Shown here: positions 4,245 through 32,990 of the stretch, in pieces
Layout of the letters: the number at the start of each line of letters is the position of its first letter
How positions within the stretch are numbered: position 1 is the first letter of the stretch
IMG/VR virus record: IMGVR_UViG_3300032272_000039
Location: 1 to 39,324 of that record
Direction: 5' to 3' (one strand)
Source: a virus
Taxonomy: Duplodnaviria; Caudoviricetes
DNA length: 39,324 nucleotides
The notes under the pieces: generated by a model
The model's database searches: none
The model's input: the letters and a program-made list of their open reading frames with translations, nothing else
What the model was told of the DNA's origin: nothing
Program-made: the position numbers and the translations under genes

Positions 4245-4667
4245 CTAGACTTCTACTCCGGCCCTCTCGAATACCTCCGGCGCCTTGGCTTGCATCTCGT
4301 CGAGCGTGAGAGGTTCAAAGTTGCGGTTGAGATTCAGCTTTGCGAATTCGTCAGCGCTCAAGCCTCCATTGCGAAGGAGATTGCCCCTCGTCTTCCCTAT
4401 TGCTGAATCCTGGAATCCCTTTGGCTGCTTCTTGAGCCATGAGTAATAAGTCTCATTCGCATCGACTGGACCGTCTACGCTCGCCCTCGTCGCTCCCTCA
4501 TCTAGGAAATCAAGGGATTCGTCGAGAACTGGAACTGTCGTTGATCTACAATTGTGTGTCACGAATCCATCGCAAATAAAAGTCTCATCGCCATCAACGG
4601 ACAAGTTGTAGACTTTTCCATTGTAACTCTCCTCTACAGTCGTTTTGATAGTCACGGTACTAAACAT
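4245..4667 (-). CDS. Minor head protein (gpF/SPP1 gp7-like) C-terminal half fused to Int-C of a split intein
   Basis: MFSTVTIKTTVEESYNGKVYNLSVDGDETFICDGFVTHN|CRSTTVP contains intein blocks F and G and Cys+1, followed by the gpF-type GATRAS...TYYSWLKKQP...Q..G.TR. Start at ATG 4667 (39-aa Int-C) is inferred; the ORF is open to 4742. Confidence 0.85.
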   Translation of the reverse strand: MFSTVTIKTTVEESYNGKVYNLSVDGDETFICDGFVTHNCRSTTVPVLDESLDFLDEGATRASVDGPVDANETYYSWLKKQPKGFQDSAIGKTRGNLLRNGGLSADEFAKLNLNRNFEPLTLDEMQAKAPEVFERAGVEV

Positions 4668-5591
4668 GACACTAAAAACATTAAATCTATGAAGAAGAAC
4701 ATCAGCGATGAGACGATAAAGGAACTTATTAAAATTGAGCATTATCAGAATGGTAAAAGCTTAAGACGGATTGAGCGTGAAAACTCCCTTTCAAATGATA
4801 CCATAAGAAAGAGGTGTATTAAAATGGGTATTGAAACAAAAAGCAGAATCAAATCCATAAACGATAATATGAAGTATGTCGATGTTCCAAGTGGAGATAA
4901 CCACTGGATATCAAAAAGGCCAGAAGACGGCAAGAAACTAGCATTGATACACTCTAAGAGAATGAAGAGCAACAATCCTTCGAACGATTCTGAAATATTG
5001 ATACGCATAGCGAAATCTAAAGCTAAGACATATTCACAAAACCCAACGCCACATGAACTTATGTTTAAGGAATTTCTGAAATCTGAAAAAATTCCGTTTG
5101 ATTTTCAATACCGTGTTGATCGCTTTATATCTGATTTCAGAATATCCAACTGCCTTATCGAGCTTGATGGAAGAGGCCATGGCTCCAGGAAGCCTACTGA
5201 CATCGTAAGAGATAAGTTTCTCTGTGGTCTTGGTTGGAATGTTGTGAGAATTGATCAGGATAACATGTTCAATAAAAGGAGCAAAAAACCTGTTTTTAAT
5301 GCAAAAAAACTTATGCAGGTTCTTGAAGAGTACATCTCCTGGATTGATGTCTCCCGCTCGCTTCCAGCCACCCTTAGCACTAAGCATAGGGTGATCGTCC
5401 GTCAAAGATATACTTCTTCCGAAGCCATCCACTAACTTCAGTACTTTCTCATCTGGATGCCTATCTCTGCTCATGACAGCAGTTACGGGCATCCATCTTC
5501 CCATGTGCGTAAGCACCAAGTCCCCGACCATGATATTCTCTATGGGAATCTTGCCCCGATTAGAGGTGATTAATCCCCCTTGTGCTATAGC
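4551..5591 (-). mobile_element. Split intein plus antisense endonuclease inserted at HYN|CRS of the minor head gene
   Basis: 1041 nt (347 codons) between PPIHYN and CRST. Block A AIAQGGLI, block B LTDDHPML, block F VYNLSV, block G FVTHN. Five in-frame stops lie between the halves. Confidence 0.9.
4689..5435 (+). CDS. Putative homing endonuclease, Vsr/DUF559-like PD-(D/E)XK nuclease with N-terminal HTH-like region
   Basis: PTPHE...FQYRVDRFISDF...LIELDGRGH...DIVRDKFLCGLGWNVVRI motif series; HTH-like GKSLRRIERENSLSNDTIRKRC; AT-rich. ATG 4689 is the likely start (track ORF starts at 4554). Confidence 0.85.
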   Translation: MKKNISDETIKELIKIEHYQNGKSLRRIERENSLSNDTIRKRCIKMGIETKSRIKSINDNMKYVDVPSGDNHWISKRPEDGKKLALIHSKRMKSNNPSNDSEILIRIAKSKAKTYSQNPTPHELMFKEFLKSEKIPFDFQYRVDRFISDFRISNCLIELDGRGHGSRKPTDIVRDKFLCGLGWNVVRIDQDNMFNKRSKKPVFNAKKLMQVLEEYISWIDVSRSLPATLSTKHRVIVRQRYTSSEAIH

Positions 5592-6356
5592 GTTGTAATG
5601 AATTGGCGGAACAGGACCCTGCCCTACAATATACCTATTATTACTGAGCGAGCGACACTGACTGGACGTTCTGCCATCGAGCGTCGAAACCCATTCGTAT
5701 TTTTCAATTATGTCAGAATTGGCGTTCCATGTCTGCTCTCTTGATCTCTGAGAAACGTGCTGCGTTGCGGTTCTGACCTGCGCTTCAATCCGTCTCTTTG
5801 CTTGCTGAGTGTAACCGTCGCTGTAGTTGGCGACTCTAGTTCCCCTGATTCGGCTTACCATCTGAGGGATCGTGAGCCCGTCTGAGTAACCGATTTGCAC
5901 GACGTTAACCAATTGGCTTTGCTCGTTCGCGGTCATCGTTGACCAAAACTTTTTCATAAAATTCCCCGTTGCTCTGATCGGCTGATTATTCGCGAACGAC
6001 ATCGCCGCTCCACTCGCAGGGGTCGCAACGGTTGCACCCTTCGTTACCGATTCAATCGCCTTCACCTCAAAGCCTGCCTGCTGCTCTGATAGCTTTGCGA
6101 GATCGACGTTGAGAGCTTCGACCTGATCGCCGATAGACTTGCCCGCAATAGCCCTGAGGTTAACCGTGAGCGCGTTGAGTTGCTTCTTGGTTAGTTGGTT
6201 CATGCGCTCAATATCAAGCGACATGACGGCGATTCCAGCGTCCCTTCCGAGCTTAACGATAACCTTTGTAAACTCATTAACCCGCCCGTTTTTGTAGCCC
6301 TCAAGAAATACTTGATTCCTAATCTCTATATCTTGGAGCTGTTCGTTTTGAGCCAT
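5034..6356 (-). CDS. Minor head protein N-terminal half (255-aa extein) fused to Int-N
   Basis: VRTATQHVS, WVSTLDGRTSSQCRSL and GPVPPIHYN motifs, then a Hint N-terminal region (IPIENIMVGDLVLTH, TDDHPM, GWKRAGDINPGD). Confidence 0.9.
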   Translation of the reverse strand: MAQNEQLQDIEIRNQVFLEGYKNGRVNEFTKVIVKLGRDAGIAVMSLDIERMNQLTKKQLNALTVNLRAIAGKSIGDQVEALNVDLAKLSEQQAGFEVKAIESVTKGATVATPASGAAMSFANNQPIRATGNFMKKFWSTMTANEQSQLVNVVQIGYSDGLTIPQMVSRIRGTRVANYSDGYTQQAKRRIEAQVRTATQHVSQRSREQTWNANSDIIEKYEWVSTLDGRTSSQCRSLSNNRYIVGQGPVPPIHYNAIAQGGLITSNRGKIPIENIMVGDLVLTHMGRWMPVTAVMSRDRHPDEKVLKLVDGFGRSISLTDDHPMLSAKGGWKRAGDINPGDVLFKNLHKFFCIKNRFFAPFIEHVILINSHNIPTKTTEKLISYDVSRLPGAMASSIKLDKAVGYSEIRYKAINTVLKIKRNFFRFQKFLKHKFMWRWVL

Positions 6357-12242: not shown

Positions 12243-13526
12243 TTACATTGCGAACGTAACCTTGAAGTCAACCGGGGTCGTCTGCTCGTTATGAGCGACG
12301 CACATCAGGCCAAAAGAATCAGCGTCATGGCTTGACCAGTCGTGATCGGGACCTAATCCGATGCCTCGCTGCTCGTCTTTCTTTTCGTGATACCAACCGA
12401 GCGAGCGCCTGCCTGCTTCTGTTGTGTCAGCGTGGAACCAAATTTGATCGAATAAATCTCTTGCCGCCTCGACTCTCATCTTAGCCGCTCCGGTGCCCTG
12501 GTTGGGGATTACTGCCGTGCTGAATCCGGCGTCTCCTAATGCACTCTCGAAGCTGACTGAGTGGATTCTGTCCTTCGTCTTGCCGTCATGTGGGAGAACA
12601 CAAAGAGCCTCGCCGTAGCCTGAGCTTTTCAGCCAATCAATATGTGTGCTTAGCGGTTGCCCTTGAGCTGTGTAATGATCCAAGACGTTGACGCGCTTAC
12701 CGACAAACTGAGCAATCCAGATCGAGGTCGCATCGGCCTTTGCTCCGGTGCCTCCGATGTCCCAAAAGGCTCGATAAGTCATAAGCGGATCAGCCTCAAC
12801 CTTACCAATTCTGCCCTCTTCTTTGCACTTGAGCAGATCAGCAGACCAGTATGCACCCTCAACGTAGGTCCGAAAGCCTCCGCCCCAAATCCATTCGTAA
12901 GACTCTGGCCTCTTCTTCTTGTCTTCGAGTCGCTGCCTCTTGAGTCGAGCCGGAAACCAAGGATTGTCCCGCCAATTCATTTCGACGATCTTCGAGCCAT
13001 CCGGCGGATCGACACGAAACCGCTTATGTGTTGCACTGTCCTCCAGCTCTGGATTCCACGTAACCCATATTTCAGAGCCCTCCTCGCGCACTGTCGGCAT
13101 TATGATCTCCCACGCATACTCAGAGACGGTTTCGGCCTCATCTACCCACAGGAGGCGAATGCGGCTCTTTGATTTGATGGAGCCTAGATTGTGCCTGAGA
13201 CCTGCGAAGACGAAATCAATATTGCGGTCGAGGGTCCTGATGTACTTGTCGCCTAGATCGTATCGCTTGAGCAATTCCGGGTCCTCCTGGATTGCTGCTT
13301 TGATCTCCGCAAAGGACGAATCTGCGAGTGAGTTTTGAAACTCACGACCGCAAACGATAACGCCAGCCATTCCAGCCTGAGCAAACTCAATGCCTTTCCA
13401 AGCTGCCATCGTCGCAAAGGTTCTGGTCTTCGAGCTTCCACGACCGCCATGCGCTCCTCTGATGTCGGCCTTGCCCTGAAAAATGGGGATGAGCTTAGGC
13501 GGTAGCTTGATTCTGACTTTGCTCAT
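12243..13526 (-). CDS. terL: Terminase large subunit (PBSX/SPP1-like)
   Basis: Walker A HGGRGSSKT, Walker B LWVDEA, TWNP, and nuclease WDIG...HDWSSHDADSF. Confidence 0.96.
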   Translation of the reverse strand: MSKVRIKLPPKLIPIFQGKADIRGAHGGRGSSKTRTFATMAAWKGIEFAQAGMAGVIVCGREFQNSLADSSFAEIKAAIQEDPELLKRYDLGDKYIRTLDRNIDFVFAGLRHNLGSIKSKSRIRLLWVDEAETVSEYAWEIIMPTVREEGSEIWVTWNPELEDSATHKRFRVDPPDGSKIVEMNWRDNPWFPARLKRQRLEDKKKRPESYEWIWGGGFRTYVEGAYWSADLLKCKEEGRIGKVEADPLMTYRAFWDIGGTGAKADATSIWIAQFVGKRVNVLDHYTAQGQPLSTHIDWLKSSGYGEALCVLPHDGKTKDRIHSVSFESALGDAGFSTAVIPNQGTGAAKMRVEAARDLFDQIWFHADTTEAGRRSLGWYHEKKDEQRGIGLGPDHDWSSHDADSFGLMCVAHNEQTTPVDFKVTFAM

Positions 13527-15330: not shown

Positions 15331-15669
15331 TTAATCCTCTACGATTTCCGGCATGTGCTTGCATTTGTGGAAAGACATTTCGTGCAGTTTCGTCCATGAA
15401 AGAGCTTCGAAGAGTACGCCGTCCACGATAACGTCTATCTGGTTTGCCCGTTCAGCTTTGAAAATCTCGTACCGCATAAGCTTTCCAGACCGTACGCTGT
15501 AGCGTGTCCAAACCTCTAGGAACTCGCCCGATGGTGTCAGGCGAGGCCCAAGTTTTCGATTCATCCTTGCGTGAGCCTGGAGCTCCTGAGAGCGCTTACC
15601 GCCTCTTGAGGATCGTTCGCGGAGGCGATCCCTTTTCAGGTCCCTTCGACTGTAGGCAAATTTTACCAT
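15331..15669 (-). CDS. Hypothetical basic protein
   Basis: 112-aa ORF on the operon strand, Arg-rich N-terminus. Confidence 0.65.
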   Translation of the reverse strand: MVKFAYSRRDLKRDRLRERSSRGGKRSQELQAHARMNRKLGPRLTPSGEFLEVWTRYSVRSGKLMRYEIFKAERANQIDVIVDGVLFEALSWTKLHEMSFHKCKHMPEIVED

Positions 15670-15686: not shown

Positions 15687-15705
15687 GGTTAACAAGGGGT
15701 TCTAC
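15687..15705 (+). other. attI-like simple recombination site at the head of the cassette array
   Basis: GGTTAAC-AAGGG-G|TTCTAC: two inverted 7-bp cores 5 bp apart. GTTCTAC is the exact reverse complement of the R'' of attC1. Confidence 0.6.
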
Positions 15706-15917
15706 GAAGATCGATTGACGTAGCTAAGGCAGTCTTTGGCCGATAACACCTCGCTTGGATCGACCCCCATTTGAAGGAGTCGGGAGTTTGCGAGGTCTAT
15801 CGCTTTAGACATCATCAAATCTTCTTCCTCTGACTCCGCACCCCCGCAGTCTTGCCCATTCGCAACACACGATAGCATGTATATTTTCGCAGCTTTATCT
15901 ATTTTTCTTTTAGTCAT
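15702..15917 (-). CDS. Cassette 1 hypothetical protein
   Basis: 71 aa; TAG stop inside the GTTCTAC core. Confidence 0.7.
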   Translation of the reverse strand: MTKRKIDKAAKIYMLSCVANGQDCGGAESEEEDLMMSKAIDLANSRLLQMGVDPSEVLSAKDCLSYVNRSS

Positions 15918-15931
15918 CGTTTTTTAAAAAG

Positions 15932-15988
15932 GTAGAACATTTCGATTCTTGGAACTCGCGCTGCTCGCCCCAGATCGATGGGTTGGCC
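15932..15988 (+). repeat. attC-like site 1 (57 bp)
   Basis: GTAGAAC-ATTTC-GAT(T)CTTGG...CCCAGATC-GATGG-GTTGGCC. Confidence 0.85.
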
Positions 15989-16270
15989 CTATTTAAAAAG
16001 TAGACGCCTTTCGGTCAGGGTCACGTAAACTTGATCGCTGTCATTCTTCTCCCAGTCGGTTTTGACATACCACAAGCTACCGGATTCGTCTTTTACAAAA
16101 AAACCATTTGCCCACCCTGGACGGGTTTCAACTTCGCCTTCAAATGATTTCTCGACAGCCCGTTGGCGGTCATAGTGCGTCGGTGCATGGGTGCATCCGG
16201 CCAACAAAGCAGCCCATACAATGGCGAAAATCGCCGCGATTCGTGTTAGTTTTCGAGTATTGGTTTTCAT
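15989..16270 (-). CDS. Cassette 2 putative lipoprotein
   Basis: Signal peptide MKTNTRKLTRIAAIFAIVWAALLAG-C with a lipobox. Confidence 0.75.
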   Translation of the reverse strand: MKTNTRKLTRIAAIFAIVWAALLAGCTHAPTHYDRQRAVEKSFEGEVETRPGWANGFFVKDESGSLWYVKTDWEKNDSDQVYVTLTERRLLFK

Positions 16271-16330
16271 ATCAGTATTTCTGTTTGGTTTAGATTCTAG
16301 GTTTCGCCACGTATGGCTTTGAGGTTAGCC
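16199..16330 (+). repeat. attC-like site 2 (132 bp)
   Basis: GGCCAAC-AAAGC-AGC(C)CATACAATGGCGAAA...TTTCGCCACGTATGGCT-TTGAG-GTTAGCC. Confidence 0.88.
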
Positions 16331-16516
16331 AATTACATGAACGCAACAGAGTCGATTTCGACCAATGAATCGGGATTCTTTTTTGCCGTTCTTGAGCGTT
16401 CTGTCGAGGCGGGTTAGTGGTCGTGAGGCGTATCCAACTATCCAGCGATTACCTCCGCTGATTACTGTCATCCCTTCTCGGATCACGTTTCCGTCTTTAT
16501 CTGTGGTTTCTCTCAT
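16325..16516 (-). CDS. Cassette 3 hypothetical protein
   Basis: 63 aa (DKDGNVIREGMTV, SH3/YopX-like start); TAA stop inside the GTTAGCC core. Confidence 0.7.
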   Translation of the reverse strand: MRETTDKDGNVIREGMTVISGGNRWIVGYASRPLTRLDRTLKNGKKESRFIGRNRLCCVHVIG

Positions 16517-16528
16517 ATCGAAAATCTA

Positions 16529-16613
16529 GGATAACAAATCGTACGCCCAACACGGGTAAGCGCTCCTTGGTTTAGTCAGCCCCATTCCCGTGTGGGGGTA
16601 CTCGCGGTTCTAC
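16529..16613 (+). repeat. attC-like site 3 (85 bp)
   Basis: GGATAAC-AAATC-GTACGCCCAACACGGG...CCCGTGTGGGGGTAC-TCGCG-GTTCTAC. Confidence 0.85.
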
Positions 16614-16873
16614 AGATATTTATTCGCTTCCTTCACCGCATCACGGTCTTGCTTTGTAGCCGATGGGAACACCATATCCGACCAGGGGCACATCCTGAAG
16701 TCCCAAGTCATCTGATAGTTTCTGACAGTAAAGTACCAGAGCTTGCCGCTCCAATATCGCTCGAAGTGAAACCACTTTGTGAAGCAGTTTTTCCCGACCT
16801 TTTTGCGGTCGTATTTGTGGAAACTCACTTCTGGAAACTTCCAACGGTTTGCTTTGAGTATATTCAGTTTCAT
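16610..16873 (-). CDS. Cassette 4 hypothetical protein
   Basis: Likely start ATG 16873 (MKLNILK); the track's extension to 16957 only reads through attC4. TAG stop in the core. Confidence 0.7.
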   Translation of the reverse strand: MKLNILKANRWKFPEVSFHKYDRKKVGKNCFTKWFHFERYWSGKLWYFTVRNYQMTWDFRMCPWSDMVFPSATKQDRDAVKEANKYL

Positions 16874-16896
16874 ATTTGGTTCAGTTGTTAAAAAAG

Positions 16897-16956
16897 GTAG
16901 AACATAGCGCTGCTCACAACGTCGGCAAGCCGCCGCGTGAAAGCTTGAGGTTAGCA
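16897..16956 (+). repeat. attC-like site 4 (60 bp)
   Basis: GTAGAAC-ATAGC-GCT(G)CTCAC...GTGAAAGC-TTGAG-GTTAGCA. Confidence 0.88.
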
Positions 16957-17184
16957 TGGGATACCAAAATGAAGTTCGTCTATTTCACTTTCTCGGATCG
17001 AAACAAACTTAGAATCTATTTTCAGCGATGCGGCGATTGCTTTTTCGTATGTTGAAAACGCACCCCAGTAGGTGTCACCTTCATAGTCTATATCCTCAAA
17101 AACTACCCAAATTTTGCTAACAGGCCGCTTCTGGCAACCAGCACCATCTCCAGTTGTTTCGGTATTCACATTTTCATTACTCAT
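16951..17184 (-). CDS. Cassette 5 hypothetical protein
   Basis: 77 aa with KIWVVF...GAFSTYEKA; start inside the attC5 loop; TAA stop in the core. Confidence 0.75.
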   Translation of the reverse strand: MSNENVNTETTGDGAGCQKRPVSKIWVVFEDIDYEGDTYWGAFSTYEKAIAASLKIDSKFVSIRESEIDELHFGIPC

Positions 17185-17244
17185 ATCTTGATTTTGGTTA
17201 AGGTTAGTTTCTTGGGGAGCTGGCTCCAGAGCTCAGAGTTAGCG
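17115..17244 (+). repeat. attC-like site 5 (130 bp)
   Basis: TGCTAAC-AGGCC-GCT(T)CTGGCAACCAGCACC...GGAGCTGGCTCCAGAGC-TCAGA-GTTAGCG. Confidence 0.88.
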
Positions 17245-17559
17245 GAAGATAGATTGCCTCAGTGATTCCAAGCACCCCTCTCCCATTTCGTAAGTCTCTT
17301 TCGCAGTCTCATCGATCCACTGTTCCCCCATATGCGTGATCTGCCCGCTTTCATCCTTTCGGATTGCGATTCTTGTGTTCATTAGCCGCAGAGTCGCCAT
17401 GTCGTCTAGGATCGGTTTAGACTGCCGCAAGTATTCTTCCTTGAGTCTATTAGTTTCGCTAACAGGGCGACGCACACAACGAGCTACATCGCTCGCCTTT
17501 CGGTCGCTGTTTTCGTGGTCTCGGGTCAGTAGGCCCATCTGCATTTCTGTTTCAGTCAT
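17239..17559 (-). CDS. Cassette 6 hypothetical protein
   Basis: 106 aa; start inside the attC6 loop; TAA stop in the core. Confidence 0.7.
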   Translation of the reverse strand: MTETEMQMGLLTRDHENSDRKASDVARCVRRPVSETNRLKEEYLRQSKPILDDMATLRLMNTRIAIRKDESGQITHMGEQWIDETAKETYEMGEGCLESLRQSIFR

Positions 17560-17586
17560 CGCTCGTATATGGTCTTAGGGTTCTAA
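17457..17586 (+). repeat. attC-like site 6 (130 bp)
   Basis: CGCTAAC-AGGGC-GAC(G)CACACAACGAGC...GCTCGTATATGGTC-TTAGG-GTTCTAA. Confidence 0.85.
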
Positions 17587-17855
17587 AGAGATTGAACTAG
17601 CTTCAATTCTGCCTCTTGGATCATTCGCCCAAACTGCTTCCCCTCCTCCGTTCCGAAGGTCTTATCGTCAACGAGCACCCTAAGCCCTTGGATCATTATC
17701 CATGTACGGCCCTCCTTTGCGCAGGTATGTCTCATTTCCCCAGTCGGTATCGTCATATTCCCGCGAGCATCGGACTTCAGAACCTCTTCTGATTCCCATT
17801 CTGATTCCAGTACGACGACGGTGCCGCATTCTAGCTTTATTTCGTATTCTCTCAT
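17583..17855 (-). CDS. Cassette 7 hypothetical protein
   Basis: Likely start ATG 17855 (MREYEIKLECG, preceded by TAATT); TAG stop in the core. Confidence 0.7.
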   Translation of the reverse strand: MREYEIKLECGTVVVLESEWESEEVLKSDARGNMTIPTGEMRHTCAKEGRTWIMIQGLRVLVDDKTFGTEEGKQFGRMIQEAELKLVQSL

Positions 17856-17868
17856 AATTATAAATTGG

Positions 17869-17935
17869 TTAGAACATGCCACTGGATTCAAATCCAGCCG
17901 CTGCGCGTCTTACGCGAATCAGTTCTGGGTTAGCT
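17869..17935 (+). repeat. attC-like site 7 (67 bp)
   Basis: TTAGAAC-ATGCC-ACT(G)GATTC...GAATCAGT-TCTGG-GTTAGCT. Confidence 0.85.
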
Positions 17936-18059
17936 ATTTCTTTTTCCTCTTCCACCATCCGCACCAAAGCATCTGATTTTCAGATCGTTTGACGGTTTTG
18001 TTTTTCTTGCATCCGTTGGCGGTTTTGTACCTGCAATTTTCGCACGATTCGTTATTCAT
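17934..18059 (-). CDS. Small Cys-rich protein, 41 aa (below the ORF-track cutoff)
   Basis: MNNESCENCRYKTANGCKKNKTVKRSENQMLWCGWWKRKKK, with GAGATT before the ATG. Confidence 0.6.
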   Translation of the reverse strand: MNNESCENCRYKTANGCKKNKTVKRSENQMLWCGWWKRKKK

Positions 18060-19592: not shown

Positions 19593-20291
19593 TTATGTGA
19601 TAAATTGGTTCATCGTTTTCTCATCCATTTTGAGAAACTTACCGCATTCCATGTCATGGCGAACCCATTTCGCGGCAAAGTCGAATTCCCCATTGCGTTC
19701 GACGCGATAGACTAATCCCTCTGGGGTCTCAGAGCATCCGTGAAATCCCCTTGGGTTAAGCAGGCCCATCATTGCATCAACTGACATAGCAGGCCCCTTG
19801 TGGATCAAATGCGTGTGCTCTATGCCGTTGATCCGGCAAATCCGGTGGAGCTCATCTGTCGGAAGTCGATCAGGACCCACCATTAAATCAAAGGCGATAA
19901 ATGGCGTTTTAAGCTTATCATAGAAAAGACCGTGAGCCTGACCCATCCATTCTCCGCAAAGCCTCTGACCGTCTTCCAGTACCGCCAAAAAGAGCTTTTT
20001 GTTAAGCTCAACAAAATGGTGAAAGTCGTGATGCATCTGATGAGGTGAAGTCATGGCGGCCCATCCCTTCCGGCTTATCGCGTGTATCTCATTGCCAGTT
20101 CTGGCAATTCCTACATTTGACCCATCGACCTTTTCTGTAACGTAAACAACATCATGCTTATCTCTGGTCTTTTCTGTGAGGATTCGCGCCTGGCCTTCGC
20201 TTACGCAATGGTCTGCTGGTCCTAGCTTGCTGGTCGGCAAGTGCCCGATTGATCCGTAGTTTTTTCGTCCTATTGGTTTTTCAGTATTCAT
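19593..20291 (-). CDS. RNA ligase (Rnl2-like nucleotidyltransferase domain)
   Basis: Motif I VTEKVDGSN, III LCGEW, IIIa FIAFDL, IV PEGLVYR, V AAKWV. Confidence 0.85.
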   Translation of the reverse strand: MNTEKPIGRKNYGSIGHLPTSKLGPADHCVSEGQARILTEKTRDKHDVVYVTEKVDGSNVGIARTGNEIHAISRKGWAAMTSPHQMHHDFHHFVELNKKLFLAVLEDGQRLCGEWMGQAHGLFYDKLKTPFIAFDLMVGPDRLPTDELHRICRINGIEHTHLIHKGPAMSVDAMMGLLNPRGFHGCSETPEGLVYRVERNGEFDFAAKWVRHDMECGKFLKMDEKTMNQFIT

Positions 20292-23567: not shown

Positions 23568-24347
23568 ATGAGTACACAGCTAACAATCAAACAGCAACTC
23601 CAAGGAGATGCATTCAAATCGGAAGTAGCGAAAGCCCTTCCTAAACATCTCACGCCAGAGAGATTCATTCGGGTTGCGGTTACGGCGTTGAATCGAACCC
23701 CAAAGCTCCTCAAATGCACTCAGCCGAGTTTATTCAAGTGTCTGCTCGATTGCTCAAGCCTAGGAATCGAACCCGATGGACGACGCGCTTACCTAATCCC
23801 TTACGGTACGGAATGCACGTTGATCATTTCCTACATGGGCTTAATCGAGCTTTGTAAGCGTAACGGTGATGTAAGCAACGTGTTTGCCGCTGTAGTCCAT
23901 GAGAAGGACTTCTTCGAGTACGACTTGGGTACTGACCGCCAAATCACGCACAAGCCTGTTCTAAAGGATCGTGGAGACATCCTGGGGGCTTACGCGGTTG
24001 TCTCCTTCAAGGATGGCGAGAAGGATTTTGAGTTCATGGATATTGGCGAGATTAACGCCATTCGTGATCGCTCAAAGTCTGGGCAAAATGGTCCCTGGAA
24101 GACCGATTGGGCTGAGATGGCTAAGAAGACCACGATTCGACGCCTACTGAAGCGTCAGATCCTTTCGCCTGAAGTACGCGATCAGATCGACAAAGAGGAT
24201 TCACAAGAGACTCAAAGCCATCAGCAACGAGCCTCAAATGCTAAGCCTGCCGATAGGAATCCTTTTGAGGATATTCCCGACGATGAGGAAGATGAACGTC
24301 CAGGGATGGAAAACACAATCGAAGTTGAAACGGAGGAGGTAGAATAA
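23568..24347 (+). CDS. recT: RecT-family ssDNA annealing protein
   Basis: ALPKHLTPERFIRVA, AYLIPYG, SYMGLIEL and WKTDWAEMAKKTTIRR motifs; acidic tail. Confidence 0.95.
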   Translation: MSTQLTIKQQLQGDAFKSEVAKALPKHLTPERFIRVAVTALNRTPKLLKCTQPSLFKCLLDCSSLGIEPDGRRAYLIPYGTECTLIISYMGLIELCKRNGDVSNVFAAVVHEKDFFEYDLGTDRQITHKPVLKDRGDILGAYAVVSFKDGEKDFEFMDIGEINAIRDRSKSGQNGPWKTDWAEMAKKTTIRRLLKRQILSPEVRDQIDKEDSQETQSHQQRASNAKPADRNPFEDIPDDEEDERPGMENTIEVETEEVE

Positions 24348-24997
24348 TGTTAGTTTACAACATGGAGCAAGGAACGGACGAGTGGCTGGAAGCTCGCAAA
24401 GGCGTATTCACCGCATCTCAAATGGGAATATGGGTGACGAAGGAGAAGCGAACGAAGACCGACGACAAAGCCGCATTTGCATCAATATGCAAAACCTTGG
24501 CTGAACTCTCAGGCTGTGAGATGGCTCCGGTATTTCCTAATTGGGCGATGAAGAGAGGGACAGAACTTGAGCCTTTGGCAAGAGCCGCATTTCAAGAGGA
24601 GTCCGGCCTTGATGTCGAAGAGGTTGGATTCTGCGTTCATGACAATGGAGGTTTTGGATGTTCACCTGATGGTTTCACCAATGATCGAAAAGGCTTGGTT
24701 GAGATCAAATGCCCACTACCTGAAACGCATGTGAAATACACGCTTAATCCTGAGTCGTTCGTTGATACATATAGAATTCAGATTCACATGCAAATGGCAG
24801 TGACTGGCGCCGACTATTGCGATTGTTATTCGTTTTGCCCGTTGCTTCCTTCAATGCTACTAAGGGTCGAGAGAGACGCATTTACAGAAGATTTGTTGCG
24901 CGGTCTCATTCGTCTTGCTGACGAGTTCAAAGAGTATAAAAAGGAGATGGCTGCGAAATGGGCAGAAATGAAGAAGAGAATAGAGGAGAAAGTTTAA
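24347..24997 (+). CDS. YqaJ/lambda-type exonuclease
   Basis: QGTDEWLEARKGVFTAS, RGTELEPLAR, GCSPDG, VEIKCP and QIHMQM motifs. Confidence 0.95.
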   Translation: MLVYNMEQGTDEWLEARKGVFTASQMGIWVTKEKRTKTDDKAAFASICKTLAELSGCEMAPVFPNWAMKRGTELEPLARAAFQEESGLDVEEVGFCVHDNGGFGCSPDGFTNDRKGLVEIKCPLPETHVKYTLNPESFVDTYRIQIHMQMAVTGADYCDCYSFCPLLPSMLLRVERDAFTEDLLRGLIRLADEFKEYKKEMAAKWAEMKKRIEEKV

Positions 24998-30449: not shown

Positions 30450-32990
30450 TTATACGAAAACGAGCTGATCCCCGCCGTCTGTTACGATTGATTGTTTGAA
30501 TCCGTCTACCCAATTGTTACTGCCCATTACGCCGCTCTCAGTGATCCATGGCCCTTGAGCCGTGTTTACCCCTGCCACGCGAAAGTAAAGCAAGCCTGGA
30601 AGGATTGACGATGTGAGAGCTGGTCCCGTTGTTACGGCCTCGCTGCTCCAGTTTGTGTTGTCCGTCGAAACTTCGACGATGTAATACTGAGCTCCCAAAG
30701 CGATGTCCCAATTCAGTTGGACGATTGTTGGGTCGTCGATGTCTTGGCTGAGAGTCAATCCCGTCACCGTTGGAAGGTTCGGAATGCCTGCAGGAACGCT
30801 TGCCGCCGCAAGTGGTGGAGCTGTCCGGCTGTCGAAGGAGTACATTCGAGCATCGTAGTTTACCGCCGTGATGCTTGCCGTGTCGTCGTCTTTGCGATCT
30901 ATCGCAGTCACAAGCAACTCTTTGTAAATCTTGTTCGTCTCGCCGATGTAGTAAACGGGAGGCTCGTTCAGGTCGTTAAAAACAAAGTCGGTCTCGTCAA
31001 TGGTCGAAGCAGTGAGGACCTGGTAATCGTTGCCTGCTACTTTCGAACAAACGTAAGGCCCTTTGACCTCACCATATTTATCGCGAAACCCGATTGAGTT
31101 TATGGGGATGCCTGCCGTTGATTCGGTAAGCGTAACGGTGTTACCGCCTGAGATCGAAACGACTTGACCTGAGATTCCCCAGTCTGGCACGTCATGGCTG
31201 GCGACGATGTAATCCCCAAAGCTTGGAATATTGCCCTCAAGCCCGGTATCGAAGGTAACGATTTCGCGCTGGAGGATTTGCTGGTAACGAATGAAAAGCC
31301 CTTCTTGGTATGCCTTGTCTCGGTTCGTGATCCCTGGAAGCCTCAAAACTTGCATACGCAAGCCAGCATCGGAGCCAATCAAGCAATCGACTGTTTCCTG
31401 CTTTCGCGTGTCCTCATCCGCGTATTCGACCTGAATCCCGTCGTAGTCGTCTGGCTTCTGAAGTTGAATATCCCACCGAAAAGAACCAGAAACCATGTCG
31501 TCAGTTGAGAAGGCCATTACTGGAACGGTTCGGATCTGGTCCCGTACCGCGGAGAATTGAGTCAGGTTGATGACTGGCGCCGCTCGTCCGGCTCTTAGCG
31601 TCGTTTTCAGTGCCTCCCAAATCGTGGTCCTGGAATCAAATACCCAATCGAAATTTACGCTGTCGGTCGTGTAGCCGTTCGCGATGGTGAGCAATCCTGC
31701 AAGATCGAGTTTCGTATCTGCGAGATTCGCGCCGTAGACAGACCGCAAAATTTCGCAGTAAGCCCAAATAGGATTCCTCGTTGCCGTGTTCGCGCTCCAA
31801 ACCGATCCGTTCCATATTGGCAGCATTCGCGTTGCTGTGACGTTGTATTGGCTGCGAGTGTTGGAGTTCAGGTTGTTCGTTGCCCTGGCCTTCATCGCCA
31901 CAAGCGTAACGTCTCCGTAATCCTTGGTTGATGGCAGGATCGCTCGAAGCTGGAACCATTGAACGTCGTCGATCTTGTTCGTTTTCGTGGATGCGTTGTT
32001 CGTCCTCTTCGCTCGCACCTCATAACGCCCTGAAGAGACTGCAGTTGAAACGGTGAACCTTTGTATGGTCGTGGTTGCGAGCGTCTTGGTGAACGACACA
32101 ACGGTGTAAGAGCCTATCGGAGCCCCGCCGTCGTCAATCTCTCGATATTCAAAATCTGCCGTAACTGTAACGCTGTCCAATCCGCCGCCGCTGTTTTGCT
32201 CGAATAGTCCACGCGGGAAAACAACATCCCACTCAAGAATCGTCGTCACGGTTCCCGCCGCGTTAGCCGTGAATGGTCCGACGTATCCGCCGCTTGGGTA
32301 ATCCGGCTCATTTGGACCAAATAGCTCTACCGAAGATACCTCGCTCGATGTCTCCACGTTATCAGGAAAGAGCGTCACCGAATCGCCAGGAGCGTAAACC
32401 TCTGTTGTTATCTCTTCGAAGTTTGCAATTGCTGTATCGTCGATCTGCTCGACAAGAGATGCGTACTCTCCTTGGCCCAAGCAAAAGAGCTGGTAAAGAA
32501 ACTGATCGTTGTTTTCAAACTTGCTGTAAGGTCTTGCTGCGTAGGAGGGGAAGAGGCGATTGCGACCAAATGGGCACTCAATCGGCTCGCCAACCTTCGT
32601 TTGATTCTGCTGGCCCTTGATGAAGTAAACCGGGTCTCCCTGATCTGGCGAATCAAAGCCTGGTATGTCAATCGAGAGAGAGTAAATCAGAGAGGCGATT
32701 GTGACAATGGCCTGCCAGTATGTGCCGATGAATGCGAATATCGAAACCGGATCGCCCGCAAGAATCCTGAAATTTACTACGTCCTCATTCTCAAGCTCAT
32801 AGATTCCCCAATCCGACTGTTTGACTGGCTTGTTATTAACCAATGCTAAAACCGGGTACTCGTAAAAGTCGTCCTCGTGCTGCTTGCGACGTTCCACCCA
32901 TTCGGCAATCGTTCGCCCTGCCGGGTATGTGTGCAGGTTGTATTCCCTGCTTGGGTCAAATGGGTTCTTGCTCTCAACGATTACAGGCAT
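30450..32990 (-). CDS. Tail tip/host-specificity protein (lambda I/J-like) with C-terminal FnIII
   Basis: GEPIECPFGR, CLGQGEY, GRYEVRAKR, TRNPIWA, YDARMY and YFRVAGVN motifs. Confidence 0.9.
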   Translation of the reverse strand: MPVIVESKNPFDPSREYNLHTYPAGRTIAEWVERRKQHEDDFYEYPVLALVNNKPVKQSDWGIYELENEDVVNFRILAGDPVSIFAFIGTYWQAIVTIASLIYSLSIDIPGFDSPDQGDPVYFIKGQQNQTKVGEPIECPFGRNRLFPSYAARPYSKFENNDQFLYQLFCLGQGEYASLVEQIDDTAIANFEEITTEVYAPGDSVTLFPDNVETSSEVSSVELFGPNEPDYPSGGYVGPFTANAAGTVTTILEWDVVFPRGLFEQNSGGGLDSVTVTADFEYREIDDGGAPIGSYTVVSFTKTLATTTIQRFTVSTAVSSGRYEVRAKRTNNASTKTNKIDDVQWFQLRAILPSTKDYGDVTLVAMKARATNNLNSNTRSQYNVTATRMLPIWNGSVWSANTATRNPIWAYCEILRSVYGANLADTKLDLAGLLTIANGYTTDSVNFDWVFDSRTTIWEALKTTLRAGRAAPVINLTQFSAVRDQIRTVPVMAFSTDDMVSGSFRWDIQLQKPDDYDGIQVEYADEDTRKQETVDCLIGSDAGLRMQVLRLPGITNRDKAYQEGLFIRYQQILQREIVTFDTGLEGNIPSFGDYIVASHDVPDWGISGQVVSISGGNTVTLTESTAGIPINSIGFRDKYGEVKGPYVCSKVAGNDYQVLTASTIDETDFVFNDLNEPPVYYIGETNKIYKELLVTAIDRKDDDTASITAVNYDARMYSFDSRTAPPLAAASVPAGIPNLPTVTGLTLSQDIDDPTIVQLNWDIALGAQYYIVEVSTDNTNWSSEAVTTGPALTSSILPGLLYFRVAGVNTAQGPWITESGVMGSNNWVDGFKQSIVTDGGDQLVFV

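Follow-up and report, generated by a model that had tools for sequence, protein, structure and literature searches.

How does a bacteriophage without an integrase gene come to hold an integron-type array of gene cassettes? Integrons are viewed as bacterial devices, and lately as anti-phage libraries. The question is raised by IMG/VR virus record IMGVR_UViG_3300032272_000039, the 39,324 nucleotides of which we analysed as a whole and refer to as the window; the element under study lies at positions 15,687 to 17,935. We read it, with moderate confidence, as an integrase-less, reverse-polarity array of seven cassettes behind an attI-like site, likely both assembled and reshuffled by an IntI integrase acting in trans, which was most likely the host's.

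The foundation of this reading is a set of seven attC sites recovered by an architecture scan:

15932-15988, + strand (top strand): attC1
16199-16330, + strand (top strand): attC2
16529-16613, + strand (top strand): attC3
16897-16956, + strand (top strand): attC4
17115-17244, + strand (top strand): attC5
17457-17586, + strand (top strand): attC6
17869-17935, + strand (top strand): attC7

The custom scanner sought a left and a right arm, the left with an additional base, each set off by a 5-nt spacer from an outer triplet (AAC at the left end, GTT at the right), with a score cut-off of at least 5. All seven sites have an R'' core ending in AAC, an R' core starting with GTT and 5-nt spacers. The first extra base is always at left-arm position 4 (position 5 scored best in site 3), and a second one follows 3-6 nt beyond it in five of the seven. 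At this cut-off, the + strand of the 39-kb window matched at exactly these seven sites. The minus strand gave six matches, two of them weaker readings within the array, and 387 second-order Markov simulations reached at most 3 matches per 2.1 kb, a maximum attained twice. The scanner under-calls, as it called about 7 of the 16 Vibrio sites reported by Qi et al. (2023, PMC9892861) and overlooked both an array of theirs in MW202573 and the repeats of phage Rctr41k discussed below. Clusters of attC sites without an integrase are known as CALINs (Cury et al. 2016, PMC4889954), a term that covers two or more clustered sites and hence the seven found here in 2.0 kb. When the short attCs were aligned, GTT alone was invariant, and Rfam returned no matches.

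The cores link the sites to one another. The core opening each cassette is complementary to the R'' core of that cassette's own attC at 27 of 28 variable bases, which only 2 of 5040 permutations equal; the two cores within one site match at only 9 of 28. The 84 arm pairs comprise 69 Watson-Crick pairs, 10 C:A pairs on the + strand, no G:T pair and 5 others, a tally partly biased because the score that places the extra bases favours C:A. Bouvier et al. (2009, PMC2727003) place the extra bases on the R''-L'' arm and show that the first of them sets the strand and the crossover; applied to the window, this makes + the top strand. The sequence data support reading the palindromes as attC sites with + as top strand and crossovers at G|TT. 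The earlier note, made from the sequence alone, had already described seven palindromes of shared architecture with linked cores as IntI-type attC sites; every palindrome was recovered in place, the linkage held, and the reading draws further support from polarity controls and from a cassette boundary at the core in another phage, both described below.

What that note overlooked is the polarity of the genes, three of which start inside an attC loop. The cassettes are as follows:

15700-15982: cassette 1; gene 15702-15917, minus strand, 71 amino acids, no family; ATG 15 nt past the R'' core
15983-16324: cassette 2; gene 15989-16270, minus strand, 93 amino acids, predicted lipoprotein; ATG inside the attC2 loop
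16325-16607: cassette 3; gene 16325-16516, minus strand, 63 amino acids; ATG 13 nt past R''
16608-16950: cassette 4; gene 16610-16873, minus strand, 87 amino acids, unnamed family of 93 clusters
16951-17238: cassette 5; gene 16951-17184, minus strand, 77 amino acids, residues 1-23 encoded inside attC5
17239-17580: cassette 6; gene 17239-17559, minus strand, 106 amino acids, residues 1-34 encoded inside attC6
17581-17929: cassette 7; gene 17583-17855, minus strand, 90 amino acids; ATG 14 nt past R''

The bottom (minus) strand of the attC sites carries all seven genes and the top strand none; each gene has an attC ahead of it. The codon score is positive for the minus-strand open reading frame (ORF) in every cassette and negative in all 21 plus frames. 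As judged from sequence, the array is built back to front relative to canonical cassettes, in which the gene is usually on the top strand, upstream of its attC. As a control on polarity, the same scanner assigned the coding strand as the top strand for three sites of phage TJE1 and for a Vibrio integron; reverse-complementing the called TJE1 sites 1 and 2 yields the "forward" oligonucleotides listed in Table S3 of Qi et al., who tested them. A + strand ORF of 54 codons in cassette 3 (16365-16529) stops at the R'' core, where a canonical cassette gene would be expected to end; it was rejected as coding since the + frames score non-coding.

Six of the seven stop codons lie inside the crossover core (R') and the remaining one abuts it. 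At the other end there are two designs: short attCs (57-85 nt) with the ATG 13-24 nt past the core in cassettes 1, 3, 4 and 7, and long attCs (130-132 nt) with the ATG within the loop in cassettes 2, 5 and 6. In cassette 2, attC2 encodes residues 1-24, a signal-peptide-like stretch up to an LAGC motif, with weak matches to the PF06474 lipid attachment motif (E=0.003) and TrbK (E=0.05) as the basis for the lipoprotein prediction. In cassette 5, a phrog_3002/DUF7336-like domain starts at residue 24, directly after the R'' core. An attC would double as a leader, and in cassettes 2, 5 and 6 its loop would supply the start codon and the first 23-34 residues.

The two ends of the array suggest where cassettes enter:

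15687-15705, + strand: attI-like simple site, with an L-type box ending in TAAC, a 5-nt spacer and the crossover G|TT at 15699/15700
17929-17935, + strand: last R' core, overlapping the stop codon of the resident minus-strand ORF 17934-18059

TAAC stands five bases before GTT at two places on the + strand of the window, 4197 and the 15687 site. The architecture scan found no partner arm upstream of the 15687-15705 box, and its TAA has the same offset as in the Shewanella attI quoted by Qi et al. The simplest reading is an attI-like docking site, and it could also be a collapsed attC. When the seven cassettes are removed on paper, the 15687 box lands next to the core at 17929-17935, which probably formed the right-hand half of the docking site when this was still empty. 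The scanner found no further attC to the right of 17935. The gene at 15331-15669 and the ORF at 17934-18059 were rejected as additional cassettes, each having no complementary core at its other end. A complete integron has intI next to attI; this record contains no intI.

Evidence from outside the window comes from cassette 4, the homolog of which in phage G001 (68% amino-acid identity; L081) likewise sits as a cassette within an array of nine attC sites that has the same polarity, as judged with ORFs listed for the bottom strand only. Among the 57 proteins tried, G001 (56 kb, 78% complete) shares only the cassette-4 gene and a tail fibre with the window, and by sequence it is otherwise unrelated to the window phage; no PF00589 match was found in this 78%-complete genome. 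Cassette 4 has identical 7-bp cores at both ends in the two phages, and DNA identity stops one base past the crossover core. The differences between the two copies fall 20/14/50 on codon positions 1/2/3. Core linkage in the nine-attC array is 28 of 32. A second reversed array in G001 has 3-4 sites of the same polarity, and the first 85 nt or so of both arrays form a near-identical block, with the similarity ending just behind GTT:

G001 31720-31807 (L120): platform block with a terminator-like hairpin and an attC
G001 42645-42730 (L121): platform block with a terminator-like hairpin and an attC

The block seems, from its sequence, to be a duplicated docking platform, and its divergence right after GTT independently puts the crossover on the side predicted by the extra bases. 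As a separate observation, both 5-nt spacers are identical between attC3 (16529-16613) and the G001 attC ahead of the cassette-4 homolog (L081 4921-4988), on opposite gene sides, possibly by chance.

Over shorter distances an attC and its gene travel together, as indicated by P0006, an 87%-identical homolog of cassette 6 in which the attC6-coded leader is retained, 30 of its 34 residues being identical. The V29M difference in P0006, if it arose through the simplest codon change, would convert a G:T wobble predicted in the bottom strand of attC6 (17457-17586) into a Watson-Crick pair, as far as the protein alone tells. Three metagenome sequences matched cassette 4; one of them (L089) is the window's own record, excluded from all counts. 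In one of the other two (L091), the homolog lies inside a three-gene reversed cassette, with two sites called and a third seen by eye; in the other (L090), it lies in a phage-like operon with no attC. Around the L090 homolog (1-770), a short palindromic motif with an AC-rich leader behind it occurs in three copies; rather than attCs, these may be gene-boundary repeats of a different type. In the cassette-4 family, 17 of 76 aligned members have at least 20 residues before a conserved proline; about ten of these 17 leaders differ mutually and by eye, on protein sequence alone, resemble attC-coded leaders.

The cargo is likely to be phage accessory genes rather than captured host genes. More tentatively, and with less confidence than in the array itself, we suggest that phages may keep a cassette pool of their own made from ordinary phage genes, in front of which attC hairpins would repeatedly be added as exchangeable translation-start modules and which a borrowed IntI would shuffle among unrelated lytic phages. 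If this were true, the cassette-4 family, found without attC, in a three-gene cassette and behind two unrelated attCs (window and G001), would allow the making of cassettes to be observed in such arrays.

The setting of the array bears on how it might work. The window is a 39.3-kb tailed phage with head and tail genes of siphovirus type, in which 67 ORFs were picked as likely genes, and the phage is probably lytic. The earlier note had called the genome closed; IMG/VR classifies the record as linear and 92% complete, but its ends overlap by 186 nt, 184 of them identical, so the record is probably whole. The array is embedded in a series of minus-strand genes, with an RNA-ligase-like gene (19593-20291) on one side and a ParB/methyltransferase gene and the terminase on the other. 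During infection, an attC's bottom strand would fold, IntI supplied in trans would cut at G|TT, and a circular cassette, a gene with an attC at its 5' end, would insert at the 15699 site. The phage itself would express that gene through its leftward transcription, as the array's neighbours from about 21 kb down to the terminase are all on the minus strand. Such transcription would dispense with the cassette promoter Pc, place the newest cassette last in the message and make only cassettes with their gene on the bottom strand useful.

The note's further statement that the phage has no recognisable recombinase stands for tyrosine recombinases, for which six-frame translation of the record gave no PF00589 match (14 of 14 controls were detected) and none appeared among the 67 ORFs scanned, but not for recombination genes in general, because protein-family searches found two outside the array, the only ones in the window:

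23568-24347, + strand: RecT
24347-24997, + strand: YqaJ exonuclease

An integrase would thus have to come from elsewhere. A host chromosomal IntI is the most economical donor, and on balance we favour it. The same cassettes and chemistry could instead be served by the integrase of another phage or mobile element, a prophage or a co-infecting phage with intI, rather than by a host chromosomal integron. We regard this as unlikely. An IntI-like gene does occur in 9 of 50,697 records of the GenBank phage collection, a number that documents such donors and also their rarity there, and a phage-side enzyme would account for a separate reversed pool. The gene in phage Rctr41k (L122) passes TIGR02249 at 383 bits within a phage operon and is followed by attC-like repeats, but these have ordinary polarity by eye and were not called by the scanner. 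In addition, the IntI1 integrase accepts attC sites of distant phages in the experiments of Qi et al., so that no special enzyme is needed. The Rctr41k locus itself (GenBank KX853513, 4680-10100) has the IntI gene followed by small genes on the same strand with about six attC-like repeats between them, recognised by eye and with unusual spacer lengths; Rctr41k is absent from Tables 1, 2 and S1 of Qi et al.

Several observations weigh against an array shuffled by IntI. The hairpins are no more stable than shuffled sequences (z from +0.4 to -2.2). Folding of the bottom strands, a check put forward in the earlier note, gave a divided answer. A constrained recombinogenic fold is feasible at all seven sites (8-9 of 9 pairs), but the free minimum-free-energy structure contains the full fold only in attC2 and attC5. 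Predicted folding probability ranges from 1.7e-5 to 0.41 over the seven sites versus 0.55-0.84 in four controls (three from TJE1 and one from Vibrio), as calculated with constraints slightly different from those of Loot et al. (2017, PMC5371416); attC6 and attC7 are at about 2e-5 and the other five at 1.6e-3 to 0.41. Low values went with reduced or no excision in the data of Loot et al. Only one of the seven sites, as scored, has the canonical bottom-strand G as its first extra base; the identity of this base matters little for attC x attI recombination according to Bouvier et al. The window and G001 have unrelated attCs ahead of the cassette-4 gene (agreement at 14 of 46 arm positions), which a simple model of a gene travelling with its own attC does not predict, and RecT and YqaJ offer an alternative route to gene exchange. 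No array was found at any of the 80 terminase loci kept out of at least 599 confirmed (56-67% identity), nor at any of 17 portal loci (39-45% identity). An 18-nt arm of attC2 had seven matches in bacterial genomes, none of them within an attC array, and so gave no clue to the host.

Part of this evidence would be expected if the array had been built by IntI and were now largely inert, its genes moving, if at all, by RecT/YqaJ and its attCs persisting as leaders and translation starts. The low predicted folding of attC6 and attC7, shuffle-level hairpin stability, the phage's own RecT/YqaJ and the coding constraint on three attCs all fit this explanation, but we consider it rather improbable. 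The core complementarity is still almost complete, the AAC/GTT triplets and spacers are intact at all seven sites, the boundary of the cassette shared with G001 falls at a core, and sequence similarity among the attCs is too low for homologous recombination.

The cassette-4 comparison also invites the explanation that some other tyrosine recombinase recognises the geometry in mirror image, or makes cuts at both cores, in which case the gene unit (GTT to AAC on the coding strand) would be what moves and attC bodies would be exchanged independently of it. The coding-strand units do resemble ordinary cassettes (GTT, leader, ATG, gene, stop, AAC), core linkage alone cannot separate the two polarities, and cassette 4 keeps both cores in G001 with unrelated attC bodies on either side, those behind the gene agreeing at 16 of 46 arm positions. 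We nevertheless find this explanation harder still to credit: the duplicated platform of G001 diverges at GTT on the side predicted by the extra bases, P0006 retains the attC6-coded leader with its gene, the site geometry equals that of the TJE1 sites tested with IntI1, and fast divergence of a site conserved in structure only could also produce unrelated attC bodies. That the palindromes are merely RNA regulatory hairpins of the phage operon, terminators or processing sites, is hardly believable: they do lie between co-oriented genes on the transcribed strand, but this leaves unexplained the complementarity of cores 280-350 nt apart, the fixed spacers and the one-sided extra bases, and promoter- and terminator-like counts are at shuffle level with no Rfam match.

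Searches for close relatives of the window phage yielded little. None turned up at the terminase and portal loci searched, and therefore no cassette of the window array was seen to be gained, lost or moved to another place in the order. Viral contigs contained no relative of the gene at 15331-15669, of cassette 1 or of cassette 6, two attC DNA patterns had no viral matches, and a single strong scanner match (L105) was discarded as it lies in overlapping coding sequence. Among GenBank phages there was no match to the array DNA or to cassettes 4, 5 and 7, and the capsid protein had matches below 37% only, among the matches listed. No circle joints or variants were found among the contigs of one sequencing run, possibly the source of the record, about 67% of which was read, and this is not evidence of absence; no RNA run was listed as containing the sequence. 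As for cargo function, no homolog of cassette 2 was found, and PADLOC gave no match for 9 proteins. The structure model of the cassette-4 protein is predicted with confidence (predicted local distance difference test, 89.5), and searches of PDB and BFVD matched the model to no known fold at E<=0.001.

Set against known systems, the array is closest to the CALINs of virulent phages. The earlier note knew of no well-characterised system like this in phages, a statement overtaken by Qi et al., who describe 17 phage CALINs and found that IntI1 recombined 5 of 6 tested attC sites of lytic phages. Like those of TJE1, PH101 and P12002L in their account, the window array has no intI, several attCs in the same orientation and small single-gene cassettes, and its sites share the geometry of those recombined by IntI1 in their assay. 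It differs in having seven sites, compared with 2-4 in the CALINs for which they state counts, and in being headed by an attI-like site. Its genes lie on the bottom strand, whereas those of TJE1 lie on the top strand according to our scanner, and Qi et al. call TJE1 and PH101 typical. It also has starts inside attC loops. None of these features is mentioned in the main text and first supplementary part of that paper. In TJE1 (L093, ends 49197-49219 and 1-10), the junction before the first cassette has inverted core triplets 3 nt apart, like a shortened attI-like site; Qi et al. describe the adjoining palindrome as a terminator.

With class 1 and Vibrio sedentary chromosomal integrons, as described by Bouvier et al. 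and Loot et al. (2017), the array shares the order R''-L''-variable terminal structure-L'-R', extra bases on R''-L'', complementary end cores and G|TT. Unlike integron arrays, it has neither intI nor Pc, its gene polarity is reversed, its attC sequences are heterogeneous and their predicted folding is lower. With the polarity reversed, the choice of strand, which normally brings genes into line with Pc, here brings them into line with the opposing phage transcript. IntI also inserts cassettes at double-stranded attG sites with a GWT core, outside attI (Loot et al., bioRxiv 10.1101/2022.09.11.507474), and such insertion would let a phage gain a docking site without an integron. Compared with attG, the 15687 site is nearer to attI, in that an L-type TAAC box precedes GTT by 5 nt, and unlike insertions at attG, described there as free of strand bias, all seven cassettes of the window share one polarity.

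Integrase-less attC arrays of phages are therefore already known, and the reversed polarity and the attC-coded starts are the features added here. Further additions are a cassette that two phages share up to a boundary at the crossover, a check of polarity against sites tested by Qi et al., and the occurrence of one gene behind unrelated attCs or none. Our literature search found no report of phage arrays with uniformly reversed genes or attC-coded starts; it covered subscription papers thinly, and the Dryad annotations of Qi et al. may hold cases.

Two further observations concern the window outside the array. A head-morphogenesis gene is split into 5034-6356 and 4245-4742 around a small ORF (window 4245-6356), and weak Hint/intein-domain matches at the junctions suggest a split or interrupted intein. 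The large terminase (12243-13526) looks mosaic, as none of its 80 best viral loci matched the portal or head genes of the window; many of these loci are short.

The meaning of the finding is tempered by the prior publication of phage CALINs, by cargo without assigned function and by array activity that is predicted only. If the array is what we propose, a lytic phage keeping accessory genes in IntI-compatible cassettes would represent integron machinery used for phage variation. The reversed polarity would leave such cassettes unexpressed from Pc after capture by a host integron, which may set a phage pool apart from the host pool. The mechanism by which cassettes first form was called unknown by Cury et al., and a gene family that occurs without attC as well as behind different start-supplying attCs would offer a comparative handle on the origin of cassettes.

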